Origin: an uncultured Coriobacteriaceae bacterium
GTDB taxonomy: Bacteria; Actinomycetota; Coriobacteriia; Coriobacteriales; Eggerthellaceae
Reading direction: 5' to 3'
Length of the DNA stretch: 64,000 nucleotides
Assembly: GCA_900550055.1 (NCBI GenBank)
Contig: URQU01000003.1
Location: forward strand, 15,661 to 79,660
The position numbers and the translations under genes are program-made. Under the pieces are notes generated by a model that was given only the letters and a program-made list of their open reading frames with translations, searched no databases and had not been told where the DNA came from. Positions 13,059-51,517 of the stretch are shown piece after piece; position 1 is the stretch's first letter, and each line of letters starts with the position of its first letter.

Positions 13059-13063
13059 TCGAC

Positions 13064-26158: not shown

Positions 26159-26221
26159 TTCCGGTACGGGCCCCATGGCCCGTGCCTTTTTCATCCCGCA
26201 CATCTGCATAAATACGCATGC

Positions 26222-26250: not shown

Positions 26251-26279
26251 ACCGCACATTTCCGTTTTTACGTGTTTGC

Positions 26280-26312
26280 GCGTTTACGCATCTGCACATC
26301 TGGGTAGATACA
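26280..26312 (+). promoter_or_regulatory. element promoter-motif copy 1 (TTTACG, 16 nt, TAGATA)
   Basis: The sequence is gcgTTTACGcatctgcacatctgggTAGATAc, with the -35-like hexamer at 26283-26288 and the -10-like hexamer at 26305-26310. It lies about 50 nt upstream of the 26364 gene. Confidence 0.55.
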
Positions 26313-26363
26313 GCACAGGATGCGGGCGCGAGCCCGCGATGGATGACCATGGAGGGATGGCAT

Positions 26364-26732
26364 ATGGGAAGGAAAGAGTCCGCCGGGAATCAGGCCGGCA
26401 CGGCGAGGATGACGGTCGGCGATAGGTTCTGGGCGCGGCGCATCCGTCCGATCTTCGACGACGGCGACCTCACGCTCGAGCAGAAGTCGGTCTTCTGCTG
26501 CATCGTGGCGCGCGACCCCATGTCGGTGGCGATCGAGTGCCCGGCGCGCGACATCGCGGCGGCCGAGGCCGGCCTGCCGCGCCGCGACTACGACGAGGCC
26601 CTGGACGCGCTCGAGCGCGGCGGCTACATCGTCGACATCGTGACGCCCTACGGCGAGGATCGGGACGGGGAACTCTGCATGGTCCCGATCCCCGCCGATA
26701 TCGTGAAGGAGGGGGTGCAGTGCCGTGGGTAG
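26364..26732 (+). CDS. hypothetical protein, first gene of the replication module
   Basis: A GGAGGG RBS sits 7 nt upstream of the ATG at 26364. The 123-aa protein overlaps the start of the rep-like gene. Confidence 0.45.
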   Translation: MGRKESAGNQAGTARMTVGDRFWARRIRPIFDDGDLTLEQKSVFCCIVARDPMSVAIECPARDIAAAEAGLPRRDYDEALDALERGGYIVDIVTPYGEDRDGELCMVPIPADIVKEGVQCRG

Positions 26733-28137
26733 CGCCAAGAGACACGACGCATCGGTGCAGTCCGCCGACCCCACCCGCGACGAGCTCGACGAGACCTTCG
26801 AGATCCTGGACCGCGACGGCGCGGTCGTCGTCTTCGGCGGCGACCTCATGGAGCGCGGCTTCGGCATCGTCTCGGCCAAGGCGACCGAGGACACCCGCCT
26901 GTCGTCGTCGGCCAAGGGCGTATACGCCTACTTCTGCGCCCATGCCGGCGCGGGCACCCATTCGCTGTTCCCGTCCGTGGACACGATCTGCACCCACCTC
27001 GCGATGTCGCGCAACACCTACTACCGCCACCGCCGCACCCTGGTCGAGTGCGGCTACATCAGCGTGCACCAGGGTCGCGCTCAGGGCCGCGGGCGCTATC
27101 TCTCGAACCGCTACGTCGTCAATGCCGAGATCCCCGAGGAGCGCCGTTTCGTGCCTGTCGATAACTCGAAATCGGCCGATGCCGCCGCTGTTGAAAACTC
27201 GCTTGGGGAAGACGCCGAAAACGAAGTTATCAACAACCCGCAGGATTCGCCGTGTACCAAAAATTGGTACACGGGCGACCAAACTAACGTTAGTTTGCAA
27301 CTAGATTCACCGTGTACCAATTTTTGGTACACGGGCCCAACTGGGAAAACGATTTCACCGTGTACCAATTTTTGCGACACTAACAAGGATGTTGTTATTG
27401 ATGTTAGTGAGAGAGGGCGCGCGGGCGCGCTGCCGTCTGTCGAAAACTCGGCGGTGTCGAAGGCCGCGGGCGACTCGGTCACGGTCGTGAAGGTCGCGTC
27501 GGAGGCCGGCCTTGGGCTCGAGACGGAGGTCTCGGTCTCCAACGCCGAGGTGCTTGCCCTCATGCGCATGTCCATCGGCAAGGCGGAGGTCTTCGCCGAC
27601 GTCGCCGAGGCTTATGCCCGTGTGCTGGCGGACGGCTGGACGCTTCCGCGCATCGGCCGCGCCTACGACACATACCGCCGCGAGTACGCGGCATCGCACA
27701 CCGACGGCCGCTACATCATGTCGCTGCCCAAGTTCCTCGCCGCCGGAAACGGCCTGAGGTTCTACGACCTGAGGGCCGATCTTGTCGATTCCGGCGCCGT
27801 GGCCGCGGCCGAGGAGAAGGCCGCCCCGTCGAAGGCGCCGACCCGCGAGCAGGTCCGAAATTACGTGCACGAGAAGGGCTATGACGCCCCCGACCCGGAC
27901 AATCCCGCCTACCGCGTGATCGACCCCGATGAGTTCTTCGACTACTACGAGGCGACCGGCTGGGTCCGGGCGGGCGGCGTGCCGATCGTCCGATGGAAGA
28001 ACGTCGTGAACACCTGGCGCCGCAAGCCCGCGCCGCGCTCCGCCCGTAAGTTCGGCCCGTCCGGGCCGAAGAGGGCCATGAGCGTCGCCGAGCGCGTGGC
28101 CGCCGATAGCGACTTCAGCGAATTCAACGACGACTAG
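26725..28137 (+). CDS. replication-initiator-like protein with an N-terminal helix-turn-helix
   Basis: KGVYAYFCAHAGAGTHSLFPSVDTICTHLAMSRNTYYRHRRTLVECGYI is an HTH of the type found in plasmid/phage replisome organisers. The gene contains palindromic iterons and is followed by a DnaC-like loader. Confidence 0.6.
   Translation: MGSAKRHDASVQSADPTRDELDETFEILDRDGAVVVFGGDLMERGFGIVSAKATEDTRLSSSAKGVYAYFCAHAGAGTHSLFPSVDTICTHLAMSRNTYYRHRRTLVECGYISVHQGRAQGRGRYLSNRYVVNAEIPEERRFVPVDNSKSADAAAVENSLGEDAENEVINNPQDSPCTKNWYTGDQTNVSLQLDSPCTNFWYTGPTGKTISPCTNFCDTNKDVVIDVSERGRAGALPSVENSAVSKAAGDSVTVVKVASEAGLGLETEVSVSNAEVLALMRMSIGKAEVFADVAEAYARVLADGWTLPRIGRAYDTYRREYAASHTDGRYIMSLPKFLAAGNGLRFYDLRADLVDSGAVAAAEEKAAPSKAPTREQVRNYVHEKGYDAPDPDNPAYRVIDPDEFFDYYEATGWVRAGGVPIVRWKNVVNTWRRKPAPRSARKFGPSGPKRAMSVAERVAADSDFSEFNDD
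27249..27410. repeat. iteron-like array inside the rep gene: three 30-bp units built on the palindrome GTGTACCAA-N5-TTGGTACAC, an extra palindrome aaactaac/gttagttt, and a flanking AT-rich stretch
   Basis: Units lie at 27251-27273 (perfect), 27311-27333 (perfect) and 27357-27381 (right half-site degenerate). Each is preceded by gattc(a/g)cc. The palindrome aaactaacgttagttt is at 27281-27296. An AT-rich stretch taacaaggatgttgttattgatgttagtgag follows. Confidence 0.6.
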
Positions 28138-28159
28138 CTCAGACGGAGGGAGAACCGAG

Positions 28160-29191
28160 ATGAACGACACGCAAGCGCAGGCGAGGCCGGTGAGGCCCAC
28201 GCTCGAGGAAGTCGAGGCCTACGTCCATGGGAAGGGCTACGACGTGCCCGGCGCCGCCAACGCCTTCTACGGCAACTTCTTCTACGCCTACCACGACGCC
28301 CGCGTCTGGCGGCGCGCGGACGGCACGCCGGTGGCCGACTGGAGGGCGGAGGCGGACACGTGGCATGAGAGGGGGCCGCACTACCTCGAACCGGAGCCAC
28401 GCGCCGCTGCCCCGGCACCCGCGGCGTCCGCTCTGGTCTCGGCGCCGGCACCCGAGGCCCCGGTCGCCTCGCCCGAGGCGCTTTCCGTCGGCGGTGCCCT
28501 GCCGCCGCTCGAGGTCGCCGACGTCGCGACCTTGGCCGCGACCGACCGCGCGTTCCATGAGGCGGTGGTCCGCAAGACCGGCATCCCGCCGCGCTTCGCA
28601 CGCCGCATCGCCGAGGGCGAGGCCGCCCCGGAGCATGCCTATGACGCGCGACTCGCGCGCGGCGGCGGGCTGTACATCTACGGCCCGCGCGGCGTGGGCA
28701 AGACCGAGCTGGCGTGCCGTATCGCCTACGACTACGCCGGCTCGCGCCTCGATCCCCGCTTCGGCAACTGGGCGTACCGTCCCGTCCCGAAGGGCAGGCC
28801 CAAGCACGGCGTCAGGTTCGTCGTCTCGGCCGACCTCATGACCGAGCTCCGCTCGACCTTCGACAAGGGAGGGGACAGCGAGGCCGACGTCATCCGCAGG
28901 TACGTGAACGTCCCGGTCCTGATCATCGACGACCTGGGCAAGGACTCCTCGACCCAGTGGGTGCTCGCGAAGCTGTTCCAGATCGTCAACGGCCGCTACG
29001 AGGCCGAGCGCGCCACGATCGTGACCAGCCAGTACACCCAGGCCGGCCTCGCCGCGGTGCTGTCGGAGTACGGCCGCAAGGAGGACGCCCTGGCGATCGT
29101 CTCGCGCCTGGCCGAGATGACCGAGCGCGTCAAGGTCGACGGCCCGGACCGCCGCATGGCGCCCTGCGACGCCGAGGGGGCCGGGCGATGA
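28160..29191 (+). CDS. DnaC/IstB-like AAA+ ATPase (helicase-loader candidate)
   Basis: Walker A is GPRGVGKTELA and Walker B is LIIDDLGKD. The N-terminal 60 aa are paralogous to the C-terminus of the upstream rep-like protein. Confidence 0.75.
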   Translation: MNDTQAQARPVRPTLEEVEAYVHGKGYDVPGAANAFYGNFFYAYHDARVWRRADGTPVADWRAEADTWHERGPHYLEPEPRAAAPAPAASALVSAPAPEAPVASPEALSVGGALPPLEVADVATLAATDRAFHEAVVRKTGIPPRFARRIAEGEAAPEHAYDARLARGGGLYIYGPRGVGKTELACRIAYDYAGSRLDPRFGNWAYRPVPKGRPKHGVRFVVSADLMTELRSTFDKGGDSEADVIRRYVNVPVLIIDDLGKDSSTQWVLAKLFQIVNGRYEAERATIVTSQYTQAGLAAVLSEYGRKEDALAIVSRLAEMTERVKVDGPDRRMAPCDAEGAGR

Positions 29192-29388
29192 GCCGCCGGG
29201 CCCCGCAGGAGGGGCGCAGCTATGAGCAGGCCCTCTACTCCGTCGTCCTGCTGGTTCCGCGCCTCCCGAGGCCCGAGCGCACCCGGACGGTGAGGGTCCT
29301 GCTCGACTTCATCGCCGGCCTCTGGGAGCTGGACCGCTCGCGCGTCGATGCGGACTTCGCATCGCTCGTGCGCGGGCTTCCCCGCTGA
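29188..29388 (+). CDS. small hypothetical protein (ATGA-coupled to the loader gene)
   Basis: It is 66 aa and its start overlaps the upstream stop codon. Confidence 0.3.
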   Translation: MSRRAPQEGRSYEQALYSVVLLVPRLPRPERTRTVRVLLDFIAGLWELDRSRVDADFASLVRGLPR

Positions 29389-29935
29389 TGTCCGCATAGG
29401 TATGTGCATGAGCGTCCGCATATCTGCGCGTTTGCGCATGCACATACCCGCACAGAAGCACAGATGCGAGGGCGCGTATCCGCGCGCCCTTCTTGATGGA
29501 TTGAGGTTTCCCATGGAGAGGATCGAGGAGATGTCCGCCGAGCGGGCGGAGGGCATATCGCCGGGCTCTACGGCGACGAGCTGTACGGCCTCGAGCTCGA
29601 CGGCGAGGTTTCGGGCGAGGGGGCCATGCGGTGCCGGTACGCACCGGTCCATGATGAGGTGAGGGGCATCTGCGATGCGCTGGGGCAGGACTACGACCGC
29701 ATCGCGACCGATCGTGCCGGGATGCTCTGGGCGGGCGAGGGGATGCCTCACCGCTTCGACGCATGCTGCGAGATCAGCGACATCGCGAGGCGCCTGCGCG
29801 CCCAGTGCCGCGATGTCGCTTCCCGTTCGGAAAGCCCCGGGCCGCGGCGCCGGCCCCATCGCTAGCAGGCGCTAGCATCTTGCGGAAGGACACGCATGGG
29901 CCGAATGTGCCCGGACAACGGAATGGAGCTTCAAG

Positions 29936-30970: not shown

Positions 30971-31069
30971 TACCATGGTGGGTGCGGATGCGCCCGCAGG
31001 CGCTTTGGCATACACACGCAAACGCTCAACCGCGCATCCGCACATACCCATGCATCCGCATCCGCATAT

Positions 31070-31309
31070 ATGCGTAAAAGGGGACGTGCCATGATTGGAA
31101 ACGTCTTGAAGCCCGACGGCACGGTGCATATCGAGCAGCAGGTCGGCAACATGCGGTACGACCTCACGACGGGACAGGTGGAGACGGTGGTCCCCGCGGC
31201 GGGCGCCACGAACCTCGTCTTCGGTGCCGACGGCCGCCCGCACGTCGAGCTCACGGCCGGCAGCATTCGCCAGGATCTGGGCAGGCCGGGTTTCGATACG
31301 CTCCTGTAG
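31070..31309 (+). CDS. small hypothetical protein
   Basis: It is 79 aa, and the start may be an internal ATG. Confidence 0.3.
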   Translation: MRKRGRAMIGNVLKPDGTVHIEQQVGNMRYDLTTGQVETVVPAAGATNLVFGADGRPHVELTAGSIRQDLGRPGFDTLL

Positions 31310-31584
31310 GTTCCGCAATCGCACATACGCATACACGTACACATACGCAGTTGCGCATACGTACACTCGCACAATGGAACACATGCACGTCGGCATATCT
31401 ACGCACATGCACATAGCCGCACACGCGCCCATCGGGCTCCAGCCTCGGTGGGCGCCTTGTTTCCGGCCGTTTTCCGTATCCGGTGTTTAAGCCGCCGGAT
31501 ACAGGGGATAACCACCTGAGGAGAAACGGACAGCGCCGAGGGAGGGCGCGCACCGGAATATTTCGGAAGGAATGTAGAACTGAA

Positions 31585-31977: not shown

Positions 31978-32094
31978 GTCCCGACGGTTGGACTGAACCG
32001 GTGTCGTGCCGATCGTGAGCCCGGTCCGCCCCCGACGGAGTTATCTATAACCGGGCGGCTCTGCCCGAGCCGCCCTTGAAGGGAAGGAAACCCT

Positions 32095-33875: not shown

Positions 33876-34024
33876 GCTCGCAGGCATATGGACCTGTCGA
33901 CCATCAAGCCGGTGCCCTTCCGGCCCCGCAAGCCGGAGGGTTCCGAGGAGTAGTACCGGGGCGGGCCGCCCGCACGTCGCGCAGACCGTCGGGCGGCCTT
34001 TTACATCGAAGGGGAGTGTGCCCC

Positions 34025-34525: not shown

Positions 34526-34963
34526 ATCACCGGCGCATCTGTCCGGATGCATATCCGCACATCGGCATACATACGCCGAGGCACATACGCGCACACGCAT
34601 ATATACACACCAGCACCATTGCACATATGCGCGCACGCATAAAGACATAGACGCACAGATGAACAGGCCGCGACCCCTTACGAGATCGCGGCCTGTTCTC
34701 GGACCGAAGTCCCACCCATGAAAGAAATCCGCGATGCCCGCATGGGAAAGACAAGCCGTTCGGCTGCGCGGGGCCCACATCATTCTGAGGCTATCGTACC
34801 CGTCTGCGCATCGGGGTATACGGGCGCGCGGGGAAATGCGCGGAAGCATATCCGCCCCGCCTTCAAAAACTTCCTATAGTTTCTGCAAAACCCCCGTTCA
34901 GCGTATATTTTTTCGCTTGCGCGGGTATCAATTCCCCGTTACTGGTCGAACGGATGACGGGAT

Positions 34964-36412: not shown

Positions 36413-36475
36413 CGACAACGGAAATGGGAAGGCCGAATCTCCCGGCCTCCCCATTTCATTTTCGCGGGCGGATCG

Positions 36476-39001: not shown

Positions 39002-42000
39002 TTCCGATTCCTTTCCTGAATGACTCGTAGAACGGCCCGTAGAGGGCTTTGGCGACCTCCGGCTGGTCGCTATCGTGCATGAGGCGTTCCATGTAGGCGC
39101 CGAGCTCTTCCAGGGTCCTGAACGAGAGCTTCCCGTCGCCGCCGCGGAAGGCCGCATCGGCGAAATAGACATGCGGCGCGGGCCTCTCCTTATCGGCAAG
39201 CCTCGCCAGGCGTCCGAATATCTGGATGATCGTGACCATGAGCGTGGAGATCGCGTCGTCTACGAGGAATTGCCTGCCCATGGTCCTCCATGCGCCCATG
39301 GGAAGGTTCTCGTCCCGCTCCATGGTCTTCCATGTGCGCCAGGCGGAGGCCCTGACCTCGGTCGCGAACTCCCCGGGATTGGCCGGGAAGTCGCCGACCT
39401 CCCTTTCGATGAGGCCGTTGAGTTTGCGGTATCGCCCGCCGAGGTCGTGCGGTGTGCCCATCGGCCGCACCGAGAAGATGAGGCTCGTGAACACGGCATG
39501 GCCGCCGCGGTCGACGATATTGAAGCCGCGCTCGATGGCCATGGCCGGCGCCACGAGCACTTTGGCCGGATGGTCGCAGAACTTGTAGACTTCGCTCCGG
39601 GGCACGAAGTGCTCCCTGTGGTCGTGGTTGTTGCGCACCAGGGCCGCGACCTTGATTGCCTGGCCCTTGCGTCGGAACTCTTGCTCGATGCGGTCGCGTG
39701 CGTCCTCGGCCTCCCGGTAGCTGTTCACGATGACCAGGGCCTTTCCCGCGCCATCCGCGTCGAGTTCGTCCCTCAGCGTGGCCATGGTCTGCGATAGGAC
39801 GATGCCGAGGTTGCCGGAACGCATCTCGGCGGCGCTGCCGGACACGTTCTGCTCGATGCCGAGGTCCCTCACGGTCGAGGTGGAGAGCTTGGCCGCCTTC
39901 CACGGCTCCGCCTCGAGGAGGTAGTCGACCGGCCTGTTCACGTGGTATTGCAGGCAGCCGGGCTCCCAGCTCGAACCGGAGAGCAGGAGCACGTGCGGCC
40001 CCAGCGCCGCCCCGGCGGGGTCGGTATCGAGCCAGGGCAGCGAGCACATGAAGGCCCGCCCGAAGGCGAACTGCCGGAAAAGCCTGAGGTCGTTGCCGTC
40101 GAGCTTCATCCCGAAGATGTTGCCGATCAGCGAGTTGGGGAGATAGTGCTGCTGGCGCGTGTAGCTGAACTTGAGGAAGTTGTACAGCTCGTCGACGGAA
40201 TCGTCCTTGAAGCTGAGGAGGTCCTGCGCGGAGGCGAGTTCGCGCAGGTACGAGTCGAACCGGATGACCTTGAGGGCGAAGGAGAACCTGGTCCGCAGCT
40301 CGTCGGGAAGCTCCGAGCATCCGCATGCAGCGAGGTATTCGTTCAACGAGTAGCTGTGGGTGTCGTCGTCGATGCCCTCGCAGGAGGTCGCGACCGCCTG
40401 CGAGAGCTTGTTGAGGGCCGCGTCGCCGCCATCGAGGCTCTTCTTGGCAATCTCGAATCTATAGGGGTTGATGAGTTTGTCGGCATCCTCGTAAACCTGT
40501 TTGGGAAGGCCCTGCTCCAGGAGGTCGTTCAGAAGCGAGAGTGACGTGAACGCCTCGTCCTTGACGATGCGCCATTTCGCCACGCGGTCGTCCCTGACGG
40601 ATTTGAGCAGCGCCTTCGCGACGGGCTCGGATTTCTGGCGCAGGTCATAGAAAAGCTCCTCGTTGAAGTCCCTCATCTTGTCGTCCGGGCGCCGCTTCAT
40701 GGCTACGGCTGTCGGGTCGGCGGCGTTGCGGATGAGCTCCTGGAAGCTCATGCTCGGGGCGAAGCAGCCGTCGAGCTGCGCCTGCACGCGGTCCGCCTCA
40801 TCGAACAGGACGACGTCGAACTGCTGAAGAGCCTCCTCGAAGAATGCCTTGCGCTCCCTTCCGACGATCATGGTGGCGAAGCCGGTGGGAGTCGTGACCA
40901 CGACGTCGGATGTCAGGGACTCGCGGGCCATGGCCTGCGATGGGCACACGTCCCAGTACGGGCATGAGTTCGCGCCGCCCTTCTTGGACCGGAGGCCGCG
41001 GCATGGCGTGCTGCCGTATCCGCAGGCCTCGGGATCGGAAGAGGAGAGCCCGTCCATGATGCAGGCGGTCTCCAGGTATTTGGATGCGGAATGGTCGAGG
41101 AGCATGGAGTCATCGTGGTCGAAGAACTCGTCGAGCCGTTCGATGCGCCTGCCGCGCGACACCAGGGGCGAGGCGCTGATTCCCGCCTCGCGAAGCAGGA
41201 CGACGCTTTCCATCACGTCCGATACCGAGTTGAGCAGGGATACCGCGCGCAGGCCGCGCTTCGCGAGGCAGACGATGAGCATGTTGGCGAGGACGGACTT
41301 GCCGGCGCCGACGAGGCCGACGAGGCTCACGACCTCATCGAGGCGCAGGCCGTCAGCGACGGATGTGCTGCCGCCGCGGGCCCGCTTGAGGAGCCCCTGG
41401 TCCTTGACCCTTCTGAGCACGGCGGCGTAGTGGGTCTTCCCGGTCTTCTCCCCGACTTCGTCCGCGGTCGAGATGAGCTCGTCGAGGGTGATATCGATGG
41501 GCGGGCGCCTGCTCTTGCGGGGGATATCGTCAATCTTGCCCGTTTGGGGCGGCACGGCATCGGGTATGGTCACCCAACGGATCGATCCGGTTACCGTGGT
41601 ATCGCCGGTCGCCTCGGGCTTGCATGTGTAGGAATACCGTCCTTTGGGTCTCGCGACCACGTTTTTATGGGAGAGTTTGACATCGCCGAGGAGGCGGTCT
41701 ATATAGATCGGCATGCGGTCGATCCCGGTAAGGGGGTGCTCGCGCAGGGCCATTCCGCCGTTGGCGATATCGAAGAACCGGTACCGCTCATATTCCGCGC
41801 GCTCGTAGAGGCCCAGCAGTCGCCGCCAGGCCGTGGATGAAGCCAGCGAGAACAGGTGTCGGCGCGCCATCTGCATGAGGTGGCCGTCCGCGCCGATGGT
41901 CTCGGGCCTGATGAGCTGGTAGTTCGATAGGAGCCTGTCGGCCTTTCGGGGATCGGCGCCGGGACCGCATACGCGTACCGCGAGCGCGAGCAGCGACTCC

Positions 42001-42110
42001 ACATTCAGGAACTCGTCGAGGGATAGGTCGCTGTCCTCGGGATAGCGCACCTCGAGATTGCGCTTCAGCTGGTCGAAGCCTTCCTGGGCTGTATCATTCG
42101 GCTCGCTCAT
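38988..42110 (-). CDS. DinG/XPD-type (Rad3-like) SF2 helicase with an Fe-S cluster insertion
   Basis: The start is placed at MSEPNDTAQ (ATG 42110, ATGA-coupled to the upstream gene). Walker A is GLVGAGKS and the DEAD-like box is VLFDEADR. The four-Cys module CIMDG ... CGYGSTPC ... SCPYWDVCP is typical of XPD/DinG Fe-S domains. Confidence 0.7.
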   Translation of the reverse strand: MSEPNDTAQEGFDQLKRNLEVRYPEDSDLSLDEFLNVESLLALAVRVCGPGADPRKADRLLSNYQLIRPETIGADGHLMQMARRHLFSLASSTAWRRLLGLYERAEYERYRFFDIANGGMALREHPLTGIDRMPIYIDRLLGDVKLSHKNVVARPKGRYSYTCKPEATGDTTVTGSIRWVTIPDAVPPQTGKIDDIPRKSRRPPIDITLDELISTADEVGEKTGKTHYAAVLRRVKDQGLLKRARGGSTSVADGLRLDEVVSLVGLVGAGKSVLANMLIVCLAKRGLRAVSLLNSVSDVMESVVLLREAGISASPLVSRGRRIERLDEFFDHDDSMLLDHSASKYLETACIMDGLSSSDPEACGYGSTPCRGLRSKKGGANSCPYWDVCPSQAMARESLTSDVVVTTPTGFATMIVGRERKAFFEEALQQFDVVLFDEADRVQAQLDGCFAPSMSFQELIRNAADPTAVAMKRRPDDKMRDFNEELFYDLRQKSEPVAKALLKSVRDDRVAKWRIVKDEAFTSLSLLNDLLEQGLPKQVYEDADKLINPYRFEIAKKSLDGGDAALNKLSQAVATSCEGIDDDTHSYSLNEYLAACGCSELPDELRTRFSFALKVIRFDSYLRELASAQDLLSFKDDSVDELYNFLKFSYTRQQHYLPNSLIGNIFGMKLDGNDLRLFRQFAFGRAFMCSLPWLDTDPAGAALGPHVLLLSGSSWEPGCLQYHVNRPVDYLLEAEPWKAAKLSTSTVRDLGIEQNVSGSAAEMRSGNLGIVLSQTMATLRDELDADGAGKALVIVNSYREAEDARDRIEQEFRRKGQAIKVAALVRNNHDHREHFVPRSEVYKFCDHPAKVLVAPAMAIERGFNIVDRGGHAVFTSLIFSVRPMGTPHDLGGRYRKLNGLIEREVGDFPANPGEFATEVRASAWRTWKTMERDENLPMGAWRTMGRQFLVDDAISTLMVTIIQIFGRLARLADKERPAPHVYFADAAFRGGDGKLSFRTLEELGAYMERLMHDSDQPEVAKALYGPFYESFRKGIGNVGL

Positions 42111-43309
42111 CGCGTGCCTCCCTTCGCGGCGGCATCGAGTCGTTTCGAGAAGTTGCGCAGCGTTTCGCATGAATAGCCGGTCTTGCCGCGCAGGACGGCA
42201 TTGCATAGCGCGCGATATCCGGGATGGTCCCGTTCGACTTGGTCCGGCACGACATAGGCCACCTCGTCCGCGCACATCTGGGCGATGCCGGTGTCGTCCT
42301 CTATCTCGCGGGCAAGCCGCTCGGCGCGGCCGTATGCCTTGGCGTCGACGGCAAGCTGTCGGCCGTCCGGCAGATGGATCAGGATGTCGCAGGTGTCCTT
42401 GAGGGGCCACATTTCGTATTTCAGACCGAGGCCCGCTGCGGCCTCGGCGATCGCCAGCTCGAGCTTTCCGGGGGAAGAGATGTAGTGCATGACGCCGCGG
42501 GATAGGCGGAAGGCGTCGTGCGCGACGCTGTCCAGCTTGTCGAAATCGCCTGTGACGGCCTTGGCGCACGTCGCCGATGAGCAGTGGGGCTGCTTGCCTC
42601 GCATGGTCATCGTCCAGCCGCAATTCGGGCATACTTTTGCGGCGCCCGGGACGGGTTCGTAGGCCATGGAGACGAATTCCTGCAACCACACCGGGTCGAT
42701 GGTGTCGGCTTCGCCCTGGTCGAGGGGGTCGGGGTCGCCCAGGGCGAGCCCCGTCTTGATCCTGACGTATTCGTTCCAGGTGAGCAGCGGGTGGCGGATG
42801 AGCATCCTGCGTCCGTACACGTATTGCTCCTGGGTGCCGGCTCGGAGGAATTCATACACCCTGCGTTCCTGATGGCCGCCCAAGAGGTCGTTTTCCGCAA
42901 AGCGCAGCACCTCGTAGCATTCCGACGTCGCGGCGAAGTAGTCGCCGTCTACTGACGCCAGGGGCCCGATCTCGATGGACCGGCACCCTTCGACGGCTTC
43001 CCTGCACTCGTCGCGCCACCGGGCCGTCCACTCGCGCACGTCTGACGCTGCGCTGTTCCTGATGAAATCGGACTCATTGAACGTCGGCAGCAGCTCTTCC
43101 GCATCGTCGGAACACTCAGCGCACAGCGCGGCGAGGATATTCATGCCGTGTCTGAATGCCTGGCTGTAGGGATACCTATGCGGGTCGGCCTCGTAGAGGC
43201 CGTCCTTCTCGGCGATGCCGTATGCGATGAGGAATACGGCGGTCTCGAAGCGGTTGGCGATATCGCGGGCTTTGCCGGCGGCTTCGGCCGCGGCGATCGG
43301 GTCGGACAT
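42107..43309 (-). CDS. restriction-endonuclease-fold (PD-(D/E)xK) protein with a Zn ribbon, first gene of the operon
   Basis: The start is placed at MSDPIAAAEAAGKA (ATG 43309, AGAGGTGG RBS). The Zn ribbon is CPNCGWTMTMRGKQPHCSSATC. The C-terminal ILIHLPDGRQLAVDAKAYG gives a PD...D-x-K core. Confidence 0.6.
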   Translation of the reverse strand: MSDPIAAAEAAGKARDIANRFETAVFLIAYGIAEKDGLYEADPHRYPYSQAFRHGMNILAALCAECSDDAEELLPTFNESDFIRNSAASDVREWTARWRDECREAVEGCRSIEIGPLASVDGDYFAATSECYEVLRFAENDLLGGHQERRVYEFLRAGTQEQYVYGRRMLIRHPLLTWNEYVRIKTGLALGDPDPLDQGEADTIDPVWLQEFVSMAYEPVPGAAKVCPNCGWTMTMRGKQPHCSSATCAKAVTGDFDKLDSVAHDAFRLSRGVMHYISSPGKLELAIAEAAAGLGLKYEMWPLKDTCDILIHLPDGRQLAVDAKAYGRAERLAREIEDDTGIAQMCADEVAYVVPDQVERDHPGYRALCNAVLRGKTGYSCETLRNFSKRLDAAAKGGTR

Positions 43310-43495
43310 GGACCACCTCTTTATTGGAATTGGCATACACAGCAGCTTTGATACCCGCCCCCGCCGCGCTTTACACGCCCCTACCGAAACTCGACGGATA
43401 AAAATGCCCCTGCACCGGCTCGAATCGAGTGAAAGACTTCCCGCGCACGGGGTAGAAAAAGCTGGGACGGCACGCATCCGCGCGAAGGGTTTGAC

Positions 43496-44874: not shown

Positions 44875-44919
44875 GCCGCCCCGCTCGCACGTCCACACAT
44901 ATATGTATATGCGCGTCTA

Positions 44920-44952
44920 TGCGTTTACGTACATGCGCATATGGGTAGACTC
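44920..44952 (+). promoter_or_regulatory. element promoter-motif copy 2 (TTTACG, 16 nt, TAGACT)
   Basis: The sequence is cgTTTACGtacatgcgcatatgggTAGACTc. Confidence 0.5.
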
Positions 44953-44980
44953 ACATCGAGTAGAGACGAAACGGGAGGGG

Positions 44981-45412
44981 ATGGTCCGCATGGCGCCGTT
45001 CATCAGTGAAAATATCGACCTGGTTCCTTGCATGGCCATGGCATTCAACGCGGCGATTGCGACCATGGGTTTTCTGAAAATGGTTGCATGGACCGAGCAC
45101 GGCATGTCGTCGAGGATGTCCAGATACATCGACAGGTTCGGCAAGATGGGCATCGACCGCGAGATTTTGGAGGTCTATGCGCGATCGTATCTCGACGAGT
45201 CGCGCAACGCGCTCATCTGCTGGATCGTTGGCCTCGCCATCACCATGGCTGTGGGGATTGTCATCTGGGCCCACGACGTCGGCGCGGCAGTCCTCCTGAC
45301 ATCCGTGGTCGCGGCGGCGGTATCGATCAGGTGCATCGTCATGGCAGTGAGGGATGTGGCGGATATCCGCGACGTCCTGGCCGAAACCGACCTAGGCACC
45401 CCGACCGCGTGA
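44981..45412 (+). CDS. small membrane protein, hypothetical
   Basis: A GGGAGGGG RBS is upstream. It has two hydrophobic helices. The start is 44981 or 44990. Confidence 0.45.
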   Translation: MVRMAPFISENIDLVPCMAMAFNAAIATMGFLKMVAWTEHGMSSRMSRYIDRFGKMGIDREILEVYARSYLDESRNALICWIVGLAITMAVGIVIWAHDVGAAVLLTSVVAAAVSIRCIVMAVRDVADIRDVLAETDLGTPTA

Positions 45413-46182: not shown

Positions 46183-46611
46183 CTACATATCCCAGATCTC
46201 GCTCAGCCGCTCATCGTCCGCGGCCTCCTCCTCGAAGCGGAACTCGTAGGGGATGGCCAACCTGGTGAGCTCAAAGGCCACCTTTCTGGTCATGGCGTTC
46301 GAGATCCGCGCCGCGCGCGCATCCTCCGCGGCTAAGTCCCGCTCGCGGAAGTAGGGGAGCGGGTAGGGGTTGCCGTCCGTCTCATCGACAATCTTCTCCA
46401 CCAGGCACCCGACCTCGCGCTCTTGGATTTCCGCCAGATTCTCGAGGTACTTCCATGCCACGGCAGTGGCGCGGGCTCGCGGCAGGCGCGGGCTTTCCCA
46501 GTTCTTGACGGTCTTCACGTCGACGCCCGCTGCCTCCGCGACGTCGGACTGGTAGAGCCCCAGGCTCTCGCGCAGCACCTTGAAGCCCGCCTTGGTGTGG
46601 ATGGTCTGCAT
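46183..46611 (-). CDS. XRE-family (Cro/C1-type) HTH transcriptional regulator
   Basis: LRESLGLYQSDVAEAAGVDVKTVKNWE is an XRE HTH. An AAAGGAA RBS lies before the ATG at 46611. Confidence 0.65.
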   Translation of the reverse strand: MQTIHTKAGFKVLRESLGLYQSDVAEAAGVDVKTVKNWESPRLPRARATAVAWKYLENLAEIQEREVGCLVEKIVDETDGNPYPLPYFRERDLAAEDARAARISNAMTRKVAFELTRLAIPYEFRFEEEAADDERLSEIWDM

Positions 46612-46626
46612 ATCCGTTCCTTTCAT

Positions 46627-47253
46627 CTAGATTCTCTTCTCGAAGAGCCCGTGATAGACCTCATCGATCTCGTCCTGGCATTCGCACAGGAATTCGCAGC
46701 GTCCGACCACGAGTGCGACGAAAAGCTCGTCGACGGTGGCAATGCCGTAATCGTGGAACCCCGCGGGAAGGTAGAGCGTCCCGTTGTAGGGCGCAGGTCC
46801 GACCCGGTAGCAAGAGAAGTCCCCGAAGGCCGATCCCTCCACGCGGTACAGGCTGTAGTAGTTCCCGGCACGCTTCGCAGCGTCGATCGCCTCCGTGTGG
46901 CCGGCGATATGGCGGATGATCTTCCCGTCCGCACGGTTCGCGGCCGCCTCGCGCGCGAGCGTGCGCAGCTCGGGCATGCGGTCGAGCGGGTCGACGGTGT
47001 GGACCGTATCCATGTGTTCCGTGAACCCCTCGCCGTCGCGCGTGATTTCGCTCACTGTGGCGACGAACCGGGCGAAACCGCGCTGGCAGACCCCGACCCT
47101 GGAGGCCGCCGAGACCTTATGCGCCGCACGCAGTGCCTCCTCCCGGCTGTCTCCCTCGTAATGCAGCTCCGACGAATGGAGCGGCCGCACGTCGATATCC
47201 TCGGTTCCCGTGAACAGCATCTCGCGCGATTCCGTCACGAAGATCGTTTCCAT
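46627..47253 (-). CDS. hypothetical protein (208 aa)
   Basis: The start is placed at METIFVTESRE with a GGGAGGA RBS. It is the last-but-one gene of a minus-strand operon. Confidence 0.5.
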   Translation of the reverse strand: METIFVTESREMLFTGTEDIDVRPLHSSELHYEGDSREEALRAAHKVSAASRVGVCQRGFARFVATVSEITRDGEGFTEHMDTVHTVDPLDRMPELRTLAREAAANRADGKIIRHIAGHTEAIDAAKRAGNYYSLYRVEGSAFGDFSCYRVGPAPYNGTLYLPAGFHDYGIATVDELFVALVVGRCEFLCECQDEIDEVYHGLFEKRI

Positions 47254-47524
47254 ATAGTCCTCCCATATGCGCACCGGGCGGCCCCATACCGCCTGCTCTA
47301 CCTCTCTTGTACCCCCTGAGGGGAAACGTAAACGCACGCCGCGGAAAAATCGCCGGACCGGGTTCGGGAAAAGGACGGGGCCGAAAACGGCCCCTGTCTT
47401 GAAATCTGGATATGGAATCAATCAATCATCGCCATGTCGAACGCTTATATGCGAACTCGGAATCGATCATCGCTGCGCAGTCCCTCCGAGGGCGGGGCCG
47501 TCGTGCTATCTGGCGGAACTAGCC

Positions 47525-48277
47525 TTATTTACCCGCCGTCGGGCGTAGCGCCAACAGGTCATTCCTGATCTCATCGAGCAGCTTCCTGCACTTGAGCTCC
47601 GCGGCCTCCATCGGGCTGACGTATCCATCCTCATGCGGGTCGAAAATCATATCCGGGTCTGGCAGCCATTTGCCGTCGTCCTCGCCGAAGGCGGTCTCGG
47701 TCATGATGTCGCAGAGGCCCAGAAGCCTGACGAAGATATCGCTCTCCCCGACATATGGGGTCGCGCGTCGGCACGCGCGGAGGTACACGTCGAGCGTCTG
47801 GAGGAACAGGTCCTCGGTGCCGATCTCCCAGGGAGGACGGGACTTATCGTCTTCCGGGTTCACCTTGATGTCGTGCAGAATCGAGTCCGGCACGCAGCGC
47901 AGGTCTGTAGTCGGCCAGACGAAATGATCGGTCTCCTCGCACAGGTCGAGGAAGTCGTAGGCCTGGTTCCATAGCACGCAGAGCACATCCAGCTGGTTTT
48001 CGGTGAGCTTTTCGTCCATGGTCCTATCTCCTGATTCTATGAGGAGGTCGGCGACGTCGATGTGCGCCCAGCAGGCGATATCCTCGACCTTCTCGAAGTC
48101 GCTCGGAGCGTGCGTCCCGCGCCGCCAGTCCTTAATCGATGAGATCGAGACGTGCATCGCGCCCGCGAGCTCCCGCATCCTGGCGGCGCCTTTGGCGCCG
48201 TGTCCTAGCAACGAATCGAACACGGCGGGGGAGAACGCGAACGTCCCGTCGCCAATCCTGTAGGTGTCTTTCCGCAT
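47525..48277 (-). CDS. HTH-domain protein (XRE-like N-terminus plus a C-terminal domain of unknown function)
   Basis: MRELAGAMHVSISSIKDWRRG is an XRE-like HTH. Confidence 0.5.
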   Translation of the reverse strand: MRKDTYRIGDGTFAFSPAVFDSLLGHGAKGAARMRELAGAMHVSISSIKDWRRGTHAPSDFEKVEDIACWAHIDVADLLIESGDRTMDEKLTENQLDVLCVLWNQAYDFLDLCEETDHFVWPTTDLRCVPDSILHDIKVNPEDDKSRPPWEIGTEDLFLQTLDVYLRACRRATPYVGESDIFVRLLGLCDIMTETAFGEDDGKWLPDPDMIFDPHEDGYVSPMEAAELKCRKLLDEIRNDLLALRPTAGK

Positions 48278-48358
48278 TGCGGCATCTCTCTTTCTCAATC
48301 CTTGCCGACAATGTTATCTGTGGCGCGGCCGTCTACGGAGACGAACCTGGACGGACCT

Positions 48359-48628
48359 CTACCCGTCCGGCTTCACGGAGAACCACAGACCGTCGTCGCA
48401 GATCAGCCCGCGCGCGACACATCGACCGCCGACGTCCACTAGGACGCCGGTCACGGTGGCGTCCGCCTTGCCGAACATGCTGGGGCAGGGCAGCGTCGCG
48501 CCGACCCTGGCGATCTCGAAGCGCCGCCCGTCGCACACGATTGCCCTCGGGGTGTTGAGCCCGCACTTTCGGTCGGTCTCGACCGCTATGGGGACGACCT
48601 TGGCGTCGAACCTGCTGCATCCGCCCAC
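48359..48628 (-). CDS. small hypothetical protein (89 aa)
   Basis: Its composition is unlike the Arg/Pro-rich antisense artefacts around it, and it fits the minus-strand operon. Confidence 0.35.
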   Translation of the reverse strand: MGGCSRFDAKVVPIAVETDRKCGLNTPRAIVCDGRRFEIARVGATLPCPSMFGKADATVTGVLVDVGGRCVARGLICDDGLWFSVKPDG

Positions 48629-48788
48629 GTGCCGGACCTCCCTCCCGCTCGGTATCGCGCGCCACGCGCGCGATACCCCCGCCGTCTCCCACCCTGGATA
48701 CCGCCCTGCGATCCCAACGGGGAGGGCATCCGGGGCGGTACCGCCCGCGCTGCGGTCTCACCGCGCAGCAGGCGGCCTATGGCCATGC

Positions 48789-49520
48789 CTATTCGGCCGA
48801 CCCGATGCGGTTGCCGTTCGTGTAGTCGGAATAGGCCCGCTCCCAAGCGTCCTGCACGCGGCGGGAGTCGCATATCTTGCAGAAGATACCCGTCTTGGGC
48901 GAGCCGTCGCGCAGCATGAACGTGATGAAGCAGAAGTCTCCGATATCGGGATCCTCGTTCATCATCATGGCGCCGCAGGTGTCCAGCACCTCGCGGTTGT
49001 CCTCCTGCGACCCGCCGAGGATATCGATCGTGCAGGTGGCCGTATCCGACGGTCCGACGAGGCCATCCGGCACCGCCGGCAGTGCATCCGGGTCGGTTCC
49101 GTCGATCTCCCCAAGGATGCGCGTCTCGAACGTCGAGTTTGCTGCGCGCAGGCGTCCGAGTGCGTCCGCGTATGCGATCGACGAGACGAGGCGTTCGAGC
49201 TCCCTGGCGGCAGCCTCGGCGCTGTCCGCATATCCCCGCGGGTCCTTTTCCATGAGCGCGTCGGCGAGCATGGCGACGGCCGCCTCGGCAACCCTGCCGG
49301 ACTTGCCCATGTCGTCGGCGCACTCGCCGGCGAGTGCCGACAGCGCGCTCGAGTAGAAGGGGATGTCGCTGCGGCGTCCGAACCTCTCGGCCACGCGCCC
49401 GCAGGACTCCCTCCATCGTTCCATCAGCGCGAGCCTCAGGTTCGCCGTCTCATCGTGCTCGATGGGCGACACCGTGTCGTGATCCGTAGCCATGTCCATA
49501 TCCTTCCGTTTCCGTTCCAT
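48789..49520 (-). CDS. acidic hypothetical protein (about 235 to 243 aa)
   Basis: It is a clean acidic ORF. The overlapping 439-aa plus-strand ORF is Arg/Pro-rich junk. The start is 49493 to 49520. Confidence 0.55.
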   Translation of the reverse strand: MERKRKDMDMATDHDTVSPIEHDETANLRLALMERWRESCGRVAERFGRRSDIPFYSSALSALAGECADDMGKSGRVAEAAVAMLADALMEKDPRGYADSAEAAARELERLVSSIAYADALGRLRAANSTFETRILGEIDGTDPDALPAVPDGLVGPSDTATCTIDILGGSQEDNREVLDTCGAMMMNEDPDIGDFCFITFMLRDGSPKTGIFCKICDSRRVQDAWERAYSDYTNGNRIGSAE

Positions 49521-49710
49521 CCCGCTCCCACGGCTTCCCTAGAGAGCCGTTTACCCCGAATCGCCCCCGCTCATGCCCGCTAAATTGAGATCGGGGAGGA
49601 AGGCCGCCTGTCCGTATCTTCCCGTCCGCATCGGAATCGGCTGTTTCCGATGCGCCCGAACGGGGTATCAACTGGTAATACCGAATGAACGACTTGGGCA
49701 AGGAGCAGCC

Positions 49711-50142
49711 ATGTATACGGACGATGACGAGATCGGGCGCGCCGTCGCTGCCGATCTGGAGGAATGCTGGCAAGGCGAGGGCTGGTACCGAATCTGCTTC
49801 ACCGACGGGATGGGATCGTATCCGGCCACATGGTATGGAACCGAAGCGGACCTTGCCGACGACCTTCGCGGTGCCTACGGGGATGCCGGCGAGATCCATC
49901 TGCCCTACGCCGAAATCTCTGTGATCGATCAGGCGGTCGAGAAGGTCTGGCAGGGCGAGGGATGGTATCGGGTGACGGGCGGCGACGGCGAGAAATGGGA
50001 GCCGGACTTCTACGTTACACGCGAATGCCTAGTCGCCGCACTGCGCGACGCCTACGACGAGGCATCCTTCAGCGGCGCCATATGCGTCCCACGTGTAGAG
50101 CCGGCCCCGGACCCTAACCGGCGCCGAACGCACGCCTTCTGA
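49711..50142 (+). CDS. hypothetical protein with an internal duplication (WQGEGWYR ... twice)
   Basis: An AAGGAG RBS sits 5 nt before the ATG at 49711. Confidence 0.5.
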   Translation: MYTDDDEIGRAVAADLEECWQGEGWYRICFTDGMGSYPATWYGTEADLADDLRGAYGDAGEIHLPYAEISVIDQAVEKVWQGEGWYRVTGGDGEKWEPDFYVTRECLVAALRDAYDEASFSGAICVPRVEPAPDPNRRRTHAF

Positions 50143-50308
50143 ACCGCCCCGTGATTCAAACTGGGCGAGAACCGAACCGGAGGAATCGCTACGCGTTTCC
50201 CACAACCGGCTGCCTACGGGACGTATGGGGTCCCTCCGGTCATCCGGCCATGGAAAACGCCGGGCTCCGGTGCCAGCCCAATACATAGCCGCACAAACGC
50301 ACATCTAT

Positions 50309-50341
50309 GCGCTTACGCATCTGAGCATCTGGGTACATACA
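50309..50341 (+). promoter_or_regulatory. element promoter-motif copy 3 (CTTACG, 16 nt, TACATA)
   Basis: The sequence is gcgCTTACGcatctgagcatctgggTACATAc, about 55 nt upstream of ssb. Confidence 0.5.
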
Positions 50342-50395
50342 TGGCGACGAAGGCGGGGGATCGGCCCCCCGTCGGAACCGAAAGGATAGAAGCCA

Positions 50396-50821
50396 ATGAG
50401 CATCAACCGAGTCAACATCACCGGAAACCTCACCCGCGATCCCGAGCTCCGCGCCACCGCGGCCGGCACCCAGGTGCTCTCGTTCGGCATCGCCGTCAAC
50501 GATCGCCGAAAGAACCCGCAGACCGGCGAGTGGGAGGACTATCCCAATTACATCGACTGTACCATGTTCGGCACCCGCGCCGAGGCTGTCGGCCGCTATA
50601 TCTCCAAGGGGAGCAAGGTCGCGATCGAGGGCAAGCTGCGCTATAGCTCCTGGGAGCGCGACGGCCAGAAGCGCAGCAAGCTCGAGGTCATCGTCGACGA
50701 GATCGAGTTCATGAACTCCCGCCCTGCCGCGTCTCCTGCTGCCGCGGTTGATGGTGGACAGCAGTATGCGGTCCCCGAGGCTCCCGCCGTCGAGGTTGCG
50801 GACGAGGACATCCCGTTCTAG
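50396..50821 (+). CDS. ssb: single-stranded DNA-binding protein
   Basis: MSINRVNITGNLTRDPELR is an SSB OB-fold N-terminus. A flexible linker and an acidic tail ending DEDIPF follow. Confidence 0.9.
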   Translation: MSINRVNITGNLTRDPELRATAAGTQVLSFGIAVNDRRKNPQTGEWEDYPNYIDCTMFGTRAEAVGRYISKGSKVAIEGKLRYSSWERDGQKRSKLEVIVDEIEFMNSRPAASPAAAVDGGQQYAVPEAPAVEVADEDIPF

Positions 50822-51058
50822 CCGACCCGTACAACCCCATACTCAAGTGATCGCCCCACCGGAGACGGCGGGGCTTTTTCATGCCGTAGCCCGTCTCCAC
50901 ACGTTTCCCACACCCGGCTGCCTATGGGACGGATGGGGTCCCGCCGGTCATCCGGCCATGGAAATCGCAGGCCAGGGGCCTGCCGACCGGTGTCCGGGCG
51001 GCCCGCTGGGCAAATTATCGAATTACGCAGACGCATATGTGCGCATTTTCGTGTTTGT

Positions 51059-51091
51059 GCGTTTACGCATGTGCGCAGCTGGGTACATACA
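51059..51091 (+). promoter_or_regulatory. element promoter-motif copy 4 (TTTACG, 16 nt, TACATA)
   Basis: The sequence is gcgTTTACGcatgtgcgcagctgggTACATAc. Confidence 0.5.
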
Positions 51092-51157
51092 TACCAGCGG
51101 CAAGGGAGGCCGCGACCGCGTCGGCGCGGGATCGCCGAATATCGGAAGGAGGCCGTC

Positions 51158-51430
51158 ATGGCCGGTTGCAAGAGGGAAGTAATGGAGCCGAGCGGAAGGG
51201 AGAAGGTCGCCGCCGCCGCCGCGCTGGTCGCGGGGCTCGTCGGGATGTGGTTCATGCTCGCATACAGCTATGTCTACATCAACTGCGCCGTGTTCCCGGT
51301 GGCGGGCGCGCTCATCGCGTACGCCTACGACGTGGCGGAGAGGACGGTGGCGGCACGGAAGGAGTGCTGCCGCAAGGTCGAAACGCGCCGCGCGTATCGC
51401 GCCGCGAGGGCGTCGGAATACGGTGCATAG
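51158..51430 (+). CDS. small membrane protein, hypothetical
   Basis: A GGAAGGAGG RBS sits 5 nt before the ATG. It has two TM helices. Confidence 0.45.
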   Translation: MAGCKREVMEPSGREKVAAAAALVAGLVGMWFMLAYSYVYINCAVFPVAGALIAYAYDVAERTVAARKECCRKVETRRAYRAARASEYGA

Positions 51431-51484
51431 CGGCGCCGGCGGGCAAGAATAAGTAAACGCGCATCCGCACAGGTATGCAGATGT

Positions 51485-51517
51485 GCGTTTACGCATCCGC
51501 ATAACTGGGTACATATA
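51485..51517 (+). promoter_or_regulatory. element promoter-motif copy 5 (TTTACG, 16 nt, TACATA)
   Basis: The sequence is gcgTTTACGcatccgcataactgggTACATAt. A long GC-rich leader separates it from parA. Confidence 0.5.

Follow-up and report, generated by a model that had tools for sequence, protein, structure and literature searches.

Ribbon-helix-helix (RHH) proteins such as ParG, omega, and MetJ act on tandem DNA units of short, fixed period, which they coat as dimers. In the IncP-1 plasmids (RK2), KorA and KorB, the latter a ParB protein, coordinate replication, partition, and transfer through repeated operators at fixed positions relative to the -35 and -10 elements; these Kor operators are single palindromes of 12 to 13 bp that are bound by helix-turn-helix (HTH) proteins and accompany sigma-70 promoters. 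In the TP228 partition system, ParG binds ACTC boxes in parH and in the OF operator, which overlaps the parFG promoter, and at both sites the tetramer boxes are separated by 4-bp spacers, with one ParG dimer per box (PMC3130281). The omega protein of pSM19035 binds 7 to 10 heptads that overlap three promoters (copS, delta/parA, and omega) and also serve as centromeres, and its sites couple copy control and partition (PMC9499535). Among promoters, the closest described patterns are the SigF consensus of Mycobacterium smegmatis, GTTT-N14-19-GGGTA (PMC4694148), and the sigma-B pattern GTTTAA-N12-14-GGG(A/T)A(A/T), to which the Bacillus subtilis promoter Pctc (GTTTAA-N14-GGGTAT) belongs (PMC8346170). 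Here, we analyzed a stretch of 64,000 nucleotides (the window) from contig URQU01000003.1 of an uncultured Coriobacteriaceae bacterium, in which five copies of a promoter-like motif stand out. The copies lie in a mobile element of about 36 kb, located at roughly 25.2 to 61 kb of the window. In our estimate, there is an even chance that they are its promoters, read by a stress-type sigma factor and embedded in operator-like arrays of 8-bp repeats. What appears to be new is a Coriobacteriia element in which GGGTA-type promoters would serve almost every operon, five of them inside a new type of 8-bp repeat array.

A preliminary description of this DNA had listed five near-identical plus-strand copies of a 33-bp motif, each upstream of a different plus-strand gene. 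These copies proved to be real and far beyond chance expectation. The pattern TTTACG-N16-TA[CG]ATA with at most one mismatch yielded four plus-strand matches (26283, 50312, 51062, and 51488) versus 0.08 expected, and none of 100 shuffles reached four; the fifth copy (TTTACG at 44924) ends with TAGACT and was hence missed by the strict pattern. When a 38-nucleotide (nt) weight matrix derived from the five copies was scanned over the window, this fifth copy scored 48.5 bits and the other four 54 to 57 bits, values that are partly circular as the five sites trained the matrix. The next best site, at 31 bits, was a reverse reading of the repeat array close to rep. The copies can be aligned beyond the 33 bp, over some 30 further nt on the upstream side and some 20 nt on the downstream side. 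A generic repeat would not show the distribution of the motif, which is absent from the host flanks (1 to 25 kb and 61 to 64 kb) and likewise from 68 related plasmid-like loci of Collinsella. A scan of viral contigs with the motif pattern gave three single matches, all in low-GC contigs, which we judged by a rough estimate to be consistent with chance.

All five copies are located 45 to 150 nt in front of a gene on the plus strand. Copy 1 (26278 to 26315; GTTT at 26282 to 26285, GGGTA at 26302 to 26306) precedes the rep operon, which starts at 26364 and encodes a 122-amino-acid (aa) open reading frame (ORF), an HTH_36 protein, and an IstB-like protein (loader). Copy 2 (44919 to 44956; GTTT at 44923 to 44926, GGGTA at 44943 to 44947) belongs to a membrane-protein gene. 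The longest ORF of this gene (44903 to 45412, plus strand) begins upstream of the copy; alternative gene calls give a protein of 140 aa, and together with the promoter position they place the start most likely near 44992 instead of 44903. Copy 3 (50307 to 50344; GGGTA at 50331 to 50335) precedes ssb, which starts at 50396, and its -35 element is GCTT (50311 to 50314), which reads GTTT in two variants of the element (L020 and L096). Copy 4 (51057 to 51094; GTTT at 51061 to 51064, GGGTA at 51081 to 51085) is followed by the gene of a 90-aa membrane protein starting at 51158, and copy 5 (51483 to 51520; GTTT at 51487 to 51490, GGGTA at 51507 to 51511) by the parA/parG-like operon with parA starting at 51661. 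No Rfam family matched the window at the gathering threshold. Hairpins are present in the 5′ untranslated regions after each motif and are unexceptional at this GC content (z-scores of -0.5 to -1.8); only the oriT-like repeat described below stood out by its folding.

The hexamers TTTACG and TACATA had been proposed as the -35 and -10 elements. Across the promoter-like sites of the window, the conserved parts were instead GTTT and GGGTA, the latter having been regarded as an extension. In the motif, TTTACG is preceded by G and the extended part reads T-GGGTA, which gives GTTT-N16-GGGTA, or GCTT in the ssb copy. The window contains nine occurrences of GTTT-N15/16-GGGTA versus 0.27 expected; none of 100 shuffles reached this number, and all nine lie inside the element. 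The ssb copy constitutes a tenth site of this type, and the distance between GTTT and GGGTA is 16 nt at nine sites and 15 nt at one. Eight of the nine exact matches, plus the ssb copy, are positioned 43 to 150 nt upstream of a start codon on the same strand, mostly with a visible ribosome-binding site (RBS). GTTT thereby occurs in four of the five copies and at four further gene-upstream sites, which share nothing else with the motif and precede a same-strand start by 43 to 124 nt (RBS visible at three of the four). The first of these, on the minus strand (47310 to 47333; 15-nt spacing, no array), is located 48 nt upstream of a 208-aa ORF (46636 to 47262) that is followed by an Aca2-like HTH gene. 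The others are on the plus strand with 16-nt spacing: 49643 to 49667, without an array and 43 nt upstream of an ORF starting at 49710; 55742 to 55766, 47 nt upstream of a 121-aa ORF (55813); and 56770 to 56794, upstream of both the oriT-like inverted repeat and the operon of the nikA-like and relaxase genes. One more perfect GTTT-N16-GGGTA (41542 to 41566, plus strand) is found within the pPIWI-RE helicase gene, in antisense orientation. Other copies of the element conserve this site, which could be a chance match or an antisense promoter.

Relaxing the pattern added four sites, which are weaker calls given that about two such matches are expected by chance (rough estimate). GTTTAA-N14-GGGATA (31485 to 31510, plus strand) precedes the lipoprotein/flotillin operon, GTAT-N16-GGGTA (34903 to 34927, plus strand) precedes the gene of the PIF1 helicase by 37 nt, and GTGT-N16-GGGTA (43352 to 43376, minus strand) lies 43 nt upstream of the pPIWI-RE restriction endonuclease (REase) gene. 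The weakest call is GGTT-N16-GGGTA (48360 to 48384, minus strand), 83 nt upstream of the gene of a 250-aa XRE-like protein, the -10 element of which is not conserved in L020. If these relaxed matches are included, the GTTT/GGGTA pattern precedes nearly every operon of the element. GGGTA alone was found at 16 intergenic sites, 37 to 150 nt upstream of 15 same-strand element genes (two sites before PIF1), and upstream of none of 20 host genes. GGGTA is invariant in the five copies and in the extra sites. Among variants of the element, it was changed at 1 of 150 positions, compared to 4.0% of spacer positions and 5.6% of the upstream 50 nt, and the ssb, 49643, and 47333 sites keep both GTTT and GGGTA in L020 and L096 while their spacers differ. 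The unrelated contig L099 (GC content of 61%) carries GTTT-N15-GGGTA at 1260 to 1283, and a 76-aa gene that has an RBS follows 59 nt downstream. This hints that the promoter class may be used beyond the element of the window. The same contig encodes a homologue of the 250-aa protein (49% identity). Taken as a whole, we consider it probable that the motifs mark promoters.

The GTTT/GGGTA pattern equals the M. smegmatis SigF consensus given above and shares its geometry with Pctc. The same -35 and -10 words and the same geometry are found for SigF of M. smegmatis and M. tuberculosis and for SigB of B. subtilis and Streptomyces coelicolor, all of them group-3 stress sigma factors, the copies in the window reading GTTTAC-N14-GGGTA(C/G), and the window sites agree with this class in the -35 element, the -10 element, and the spacing (14 to 19 nt). 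The known SigF and SigB regulons differ in content: they comprise chromosomal stress and stationary-phase genes under partner-switching control, in contrast to essentially all operons of a mobile element (replication, partition, ssb, defense, and transfer), which the pattern would drive here in Coriobacteriia, a class for which no such sigma factor or regulon is known to have been described. An element-encoded sigma factor, which had been offered as one explanation for a shared regulon, was not found by Pfam (20 ORFs, E values up to 1), by precomputed Pfam assignments for all called genes, or by NCBIfam (10 ORFs). Likewise, tblastn with SigB, SigF, and RpoD against the window and all loci gave no sigma-like match at E values up to 10, and inspection of the element ORFs without a known family by eye revealed no features of sigma region 2 or 4. 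In view of this lack of a recognizable sigma gene on the element, we infer that a SigB/SigF-type sigma factor of the host would read these sites, and we hold the chances for and against this class assignment to be balanced. RNA polymerase would then recognize GTTT (-35) and GGGTA (-10), 16 nt apart, and start transcription about 7 to 10 nt after GGGTA. The same pair, without the rest of the motif, would serve most other operons of the element. The idea of a single element-specific regulon is thus retained insofar as the motif marks promoter regions of one regulon together with a shared operator-like component; the sigma assignment in its original form is not.

This operator-like component consists of repeat arrays. 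The intergenic regions of the element contain tracts of alternating purines and pyrimidines that are dominated by CGCAYA and CACATA words and whose autocorrelation peaks at lags 8, 16, and 24; Tandem Repeats Finder (TRF) reported CGCATATG in 3.2 copies at 26223 to 26248. About 95 units were counted in nine arrays of 6 to 17 units, a unit being a CRYA box plus a 4-nt spacer, with the consensus C(78%)-R-Y-A(78%)-t-m-Y-R. Runs with at least five of eight phased CRYA boxes occurred exclusively at intergenic sites of the element and in none of 30 shuffles. The phasing is specific for period 8, for which 28 plus-strand starts were counted, compared to 0 to 6 at periods 4 to 7 and 9 to 14, and 9 at the multiple 16. 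If the DNA is cut into steps of eight from the GGTA of the -10 element, all five motif copies turn out to be the 3′ ends of phased arrays, whose register runs through both the -35 and the -10 elements. The rep copy, for example, ends in CGTGtttg CGCGttta CGCAtctg CACAtctg GGTAgata. The -35 element falls on the unit TGCG-ttta and the -10 element on the unit GGTA-cata, and the palindrome-like TGCG-YTTA-CGCA over the -35 element is a unit boundary. The invariant 16-nt spacer noticed earlier is present and equals two array units; spacer and flanks look invariant because the copies sit in register with the 8-bp arrays through the promoter.

Five arrays, all on the plus strand, carry the motif copies: 26199 to 26318 (15 units, including three copies of CGCATATG; copy 1 forms its 3′ end), 44896 to 44959 (8 units; copy 2), 50284 to 50347 (8 units; copy 3), 51026 to 51097 (9 units; copy 4), and 51452 to 51523 (9 units; copy 5, the parA promoter). 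Three arrays thus lie within 1.3 kb upstream of parA. The other four, also on the plus strand, contain no GGGTA: 29395 to 29466 (9 units), 31033 to 31080 (6 units, directly upstream of a 72-aa ORF), 31314 to 31425 (14 units, directly downstream of this ORF), and 34534 to 34669 (17 units). A weaker sixth motif variant had been reported near 29438. Its similarity to the motif is genuine, but GGGTA is missing and it is a member of the array at 29395 to 29466.

Copy 5 leads into a gene pair that resembles known partition operons. The gene at 51661 to 52209 (plus strand) encodes a small ParA/ParF-type partition ATPase of 182 aa, for which the NCBI name of the Eggerthella protein is ParF. It is followed by a 99-aa ORF (52209 to 52508, plus strand), a candidate ParG/omega-like array binder. 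Its N-terminal tail is of low complexity and apparently disordered, and its C terminus (HRLSVIVPDDLYWQLKEYLVEHRREGYRSASDLMRSLLEEHLRK) resembles a strand-helix-helix arrangement, for which AlphaFold predicted two helices at pLDDT values of 84 to 88. The arrangement resembles that of TP228: the gene after the small ParA encodes a short protein whose N-terminal tail is flexible and whose C terminus is RHH-like, and arrays of degenerate boxes, each of 4 bp and spaced by 4 bp to give an 8-bp period, are found in front of the par operon, where they overlap the promoter. Fixed-period contiguous units and an array overlapping the parA promoter are what is expected of DNA coated by RHH proteins. The differences are that the box in the window is CRYA with pyrimidine-purine alternating spacers, in contrast to ACTC with AT-rich spacers in TP228, and that the window has nine arrays over 25 kb, at the rep, ssb, and membrane-protein promoters and at operon ends, as opposed to one locus in TP228. 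In this distribution the arrays are closer to the omega system, in which short tandem repeats overlap several promoters, as they do here for rep, ssb, and parA. The omega heptads (WATCACW) are, however, of mixed orientation and accompany sigma-A promoters in Firmicutes, whereas the window has 8-bp units, almost all in one orientation, at GGGTA-type promoters of a chromosomally integrated element. With the Kor operators of RK2, the arrays share the fixed position relative to -35 and -10 elements in many promoters of one element; they differ in being phased tandem arrays instead of single palindromes.

By analogy to these systems, we lean slightly towards the view that the arrays are protein-binding operator-centromeres, and more tentatively, at somewhat below even chances, we propose the 99-aa protein as their binder. 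A small cooperative DNA-binding protein would coat the arrays, as ParG of TP228 and omega of pSM19035 do. The coat would occlude the -35 and -10 elements of the five promoters and thereby corepress the replication, ssb, and partition genes. The coated arrays would double as centromere-like sites, so that replication, ssb, and partition would be coupled, while the array-free promoters (transfer, defense, and regulators) would share the sigma factor only.

Several observations weigh against this proposal. The similarity of the 99-aa protein to RHH families remained below threshold throughout (Pfam RHH_5/RHH_1, E values of 0.04 to 0.09; a CopG-family RHH protein in the PDB, E value of 0.2), and neither sequence nor structure matched ParG significantly. 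Its best two Foldseek matches, both with E values above 2, were the TraM N-terminal domain and the ParD2 antitoxin, which we take to be RHH folds. Four of the nine arrays lack a GGGTA promoter, and three of these (29395 to 29466, 31314 to 31425, and 34534 to 34669) are followed by a terminator-like hairpin. On the promoter side, the -35 element was no more conserved than the spacer among the variants (4 of 120 versus 19 of 479 positions changed, all four changes leading to GTAT), a comparison based on few and shallow variants. The GTTT/GGGTA pattern matched once in the 68 Collinsella plasmid-like loci, and among the other elements (L092 to L101) an exact match was present in L099 only. This near-absence from the other Coriobacteriia mobile DNA examined could point to an element-specific factor instead of a host sigma factor. 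In addition, we found nothing in the literature on SigB or SigF in Coriobacteriia, including the hosts Senegalimassilia, Eggerthella, Collinsella, and Gordonibacter.

The strongest competing explanation, which we regard as possible though less probable than our main reading, accepts the promoters and assigns the arrays to a different binder (the 250-aa XRE-like protein, the Rep initiator, or a host nucleoid protein) or to DNA structure, i.e., to Z-DNA-prone, supercoiling-sensitive tracts. The pyrimidine/purine alternation is almost perfect over up to 136 bp, the strongest perfect repeats lie upstream of rep, and the weak RHH similarity of the 99-aa protein leaves room for another reader. A different mobile element of 57% GC (L092), with genes for a tyrosine integrase, a methylase, and a MutH-like protein, also contains similar intergenic 8-bp purine/pyrimidine tracts with RCATA words (2111 to 2161, 12982 to 13065, and 14585 to 14799). 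Over the 17 kb covered, the proteins that it has in common with the element of the window are limited to those of 72 aa (50% identity) and 250 aa (59% identity), the 72-aa gene abutting an array in both elements; these two proteins could be alternative array readers. A ParG-like homologue was not seen in L092, which also weighs against the 99-aa protein as binder, but these 17 kb belong to a contig of 47.5 kb, leaving room for such a gene. Contig L102, which encodes a diverged ParG-like homologue, lacks the upstream region. Against a different binder stands the known RHH mode of ParG and omega, in which tandem units of 7 to 8 bp are coated by dimers. Moreover, among the other elements that encode distant homologues of the 250-aa protein (L092 to L101), most have neither motif nor arrays. 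This also makes the two HTH proteins that had been suggested as regulators, of 147 aa (46183 to 46611) and 250 aa (47525 to 48277), weaker candidates; the 147-aa protein resembles Aca2/antitoxin-type HTH proteins. The 72-aa ORF (31091 to 31309, plus strand), which has arrays on both sides, shows an internal repeat (DG..H.E...G..R.D) and does not look like a DNA-binding protein. Replication iterons are direct repeats of about 17 to 22 bp near the rep gene that are bound by the initiator. They were considered and rejected for the arrays, whose units are 8 bp long and whose nine sites lie up to 25 kb from rep.

Two further explanations accept the promoters and question how they are read, and both appear improbable to us. 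According to the first, the motif would be a promoter of the housekeeping sigma factor (sigma-70/SigA) with TTTACG, a 16-nt spacer, TACATA/TAGATA, and an extended TGGGTA, and the shared spacer would be the operator of an element-encoded HTH repressor. TTTACG matches TTGACA at four of six positions in the five copies, and the 16-nt spacing is acceptable. Promoters in the host flanks resemble TGG-TACAAT and TGG-TATACT, one of them reading TGGTACATA. Eggerthella lenta expresses lacZ from the Escherichia coli promoter Ptac (PMC9734109), and its primary sigma factor thus reads canonical promoters. The motif itself fits such promoters poorly: instead of TAnnnT, the -10 hexamer reads TACATA or TAGATA in four of the five copies, so that the T at -7 is missing there, as it is at 11 of 14 sites (3 of 14 have it), and the TG is one base out of the extended -10 register. 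GGG, which is not required by sigma-70, is invariant at all sites, while the extra sites share only GTTT and GGGTA and not TTTACG or TACATA, the array-free sites reading TTTGGG, TTTCCG, and TTTAAA after the G. A scan of 43 to 57 kb with the sigma-70 consensus gave no enrichment (two sites versus 2.7 expected), and neither site coincided with a motif. The host sigma-70 reading in the preliminary description was therefore abandoned.

According to the second explanation, to which we assign a similarly low probability, a specificity factor encoded by the element (a divergent sigma factor, an activator, or an appropriator) steers the host RNA polymerase to GTTT/GGGTA. Element transcription would then be self-contained and portable across orders, which would fit the presence of an identical element in hosts that belong to two orders. 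Nearly all operons have the pattern, including those expected to be constitutive (defense and partition), whereas the other mobile DNA of Coriobacteriia that was examined almost lacks it, and more than 20 ORFs of the element have no known family. On the other side, there was no signal for Sigma70_r2, r3, or r4 in the searches described above (E values up to 1, and up to 10 by tblastn), nor did any ORF without a known family show features of sigma region 2 or 4 by eye. It is unlikely that a factor would have the same specificity as a conserved and easily detected sigma family without detectable homology to it, and L099, which is a different element, also has such a site. The combination of an element-encoded promoter-specificity factor with phased 8-bp arrays into a self-contained transcription and maintenance circuit is, in our view, correspondingly improbable. 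If true, it could explain how one identical element works in hosts of two Coriobacteriia orders, and the arrays could be a new kind of operator-centromere that is read by an undescribed protein family.

Very improbable, finally, is the explanation that the motifs are no promoters at all, with an incidental likeness to -35 and -10 elements in what would be centromeres, iterons, or decayed duplicated intergenic cassettes: four arrays lack GGGTA, the array at 29395 to 29466 including its downstream hairpin resembles a decayed paralogue of the rep copy, and the cassette similarity spans about 100 bp, but all five copies are oriented with their gene and lie 45 to 150 nt before its start, GTTT/GGGTA also occurs free of arrays at four further gene-upstream positions, the -10 element is the least variable segment, and the 8-bp period is far below iteron length.

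Should the host-read, SigB/SigF-type promoters be real, the 10 to 17 or so promoters of one class could define an alternative-sigma regulon in Coriobacteriia, the class of E. lenta and Collinsella, both of which are common in the gut and of medical relevance. To our knowledge, promoters and sigma factor regulons of Coriobacteriia are essentially uncharacterized. Should the arrays be operator-centromeres, replication, ssb, and partition would be wired to one array-binding protein, and the ParG/omega paradigm would reach high-GC anaerobes in a form built on a new 8-bp unit. For E. lenta, whose genetic toolbox is still young, both could supply parts in the form of promoters and operators. The readings are directly testable, as the type strain of E. 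lenta carries the element and reporter vectors exist (PMC9734109).

The element itself is flanked by host genes, RlmB/SpoU on the left, whose name points to Senegalimassilia anaerobia as the host, and a glycosyltransferase on the right. It carries the rep module, a flotillin pair, a PIF1 helicase, a pPIWI-RE defense operon, XRE-type regulators, ssb, the small ParA, a NikA-like protein, and a relaxase, and it is a non-conjugative, relaxase-bearing resident of Coriobacteriia. Among the ORFs of the element in the window, we detected neither an integrase nor a coupling protein nor a conjugation channel, and comparison of the left and right flanks revealed no convincing direct repeats at its ends. 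Eggerthella (including E. lenta DSM 2243, ACV54806.1), Collinsella, Gordonibacter, and the Senegalimassilia host of the window have ParA proteins of 100% identity, which implies a very recent spread over two orders of Coriobacteriia. The element is very widespread, its ssb gene being indexed in 15,930 blocks of the collection of assemblies. All fetched copies of the element have the motif copies in the same positions, as far as their sequences cover them. In one of these copies (L003), an insertion sequence (10511 to 11874; an rve transposase and an HTH ORF) is located between ssb and the gene of the small membrane protein and separates motif copies 3 and 4. A megablast search of a plasmid database with 26 to 50 kb of the window gave no match.

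A second group of loci (L021 to L088) encodes a ParA with 59% identity on Collinsella contigs of 20 to 38 kb, which are probably multicopy plasmids; very high coverage is often given in the contig names. In this group, the motif is absent, the promoters are AT rich and of the TATAAT type, and different repeats of the ATGACT type lie upstream of parA. As both promoters and repeats differ, the group was of no help as a source of covariation.

Some further features of the element concern its cargo and transfer genes. The region at 36476 to 43309 (minus strand) is a complete pPIWI-RE defense operon, comprising the REase, a DinG-like "Z" helicase, and the pPIWI-RE Argonaute-like protein. At 46183 to 47333 (minus strand), the 208-aa ORF with its own GGGTA site is followed by the Aca2/MqsA-like HTH protein, which suggests an anti-defense (acr-aca) or toxin-antitoxin pair. 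The ORF at 49710 to 50142 (plus strand) contains an internal duplication (WQGEGWYR) and has a weak match to AcrF2. An inverted repeat at 56820 to 56860 (plus strand), with a 12-bp stem formed by CATACTTGTAC and GTACAAGTATG and a folding z-score of -3.9, lies between the promoter-like site at 56770 and the nikA-like/relaxase genes and is likely the origin of transfer (oriT). Downstream of the relaxase, an acidic protein of 363 aa (59667 to 60758, plus strand) shows a RelB-like antitoxin match in its C-terminal part (NCBIfam E value of 5e-7, residues 292 to 329).

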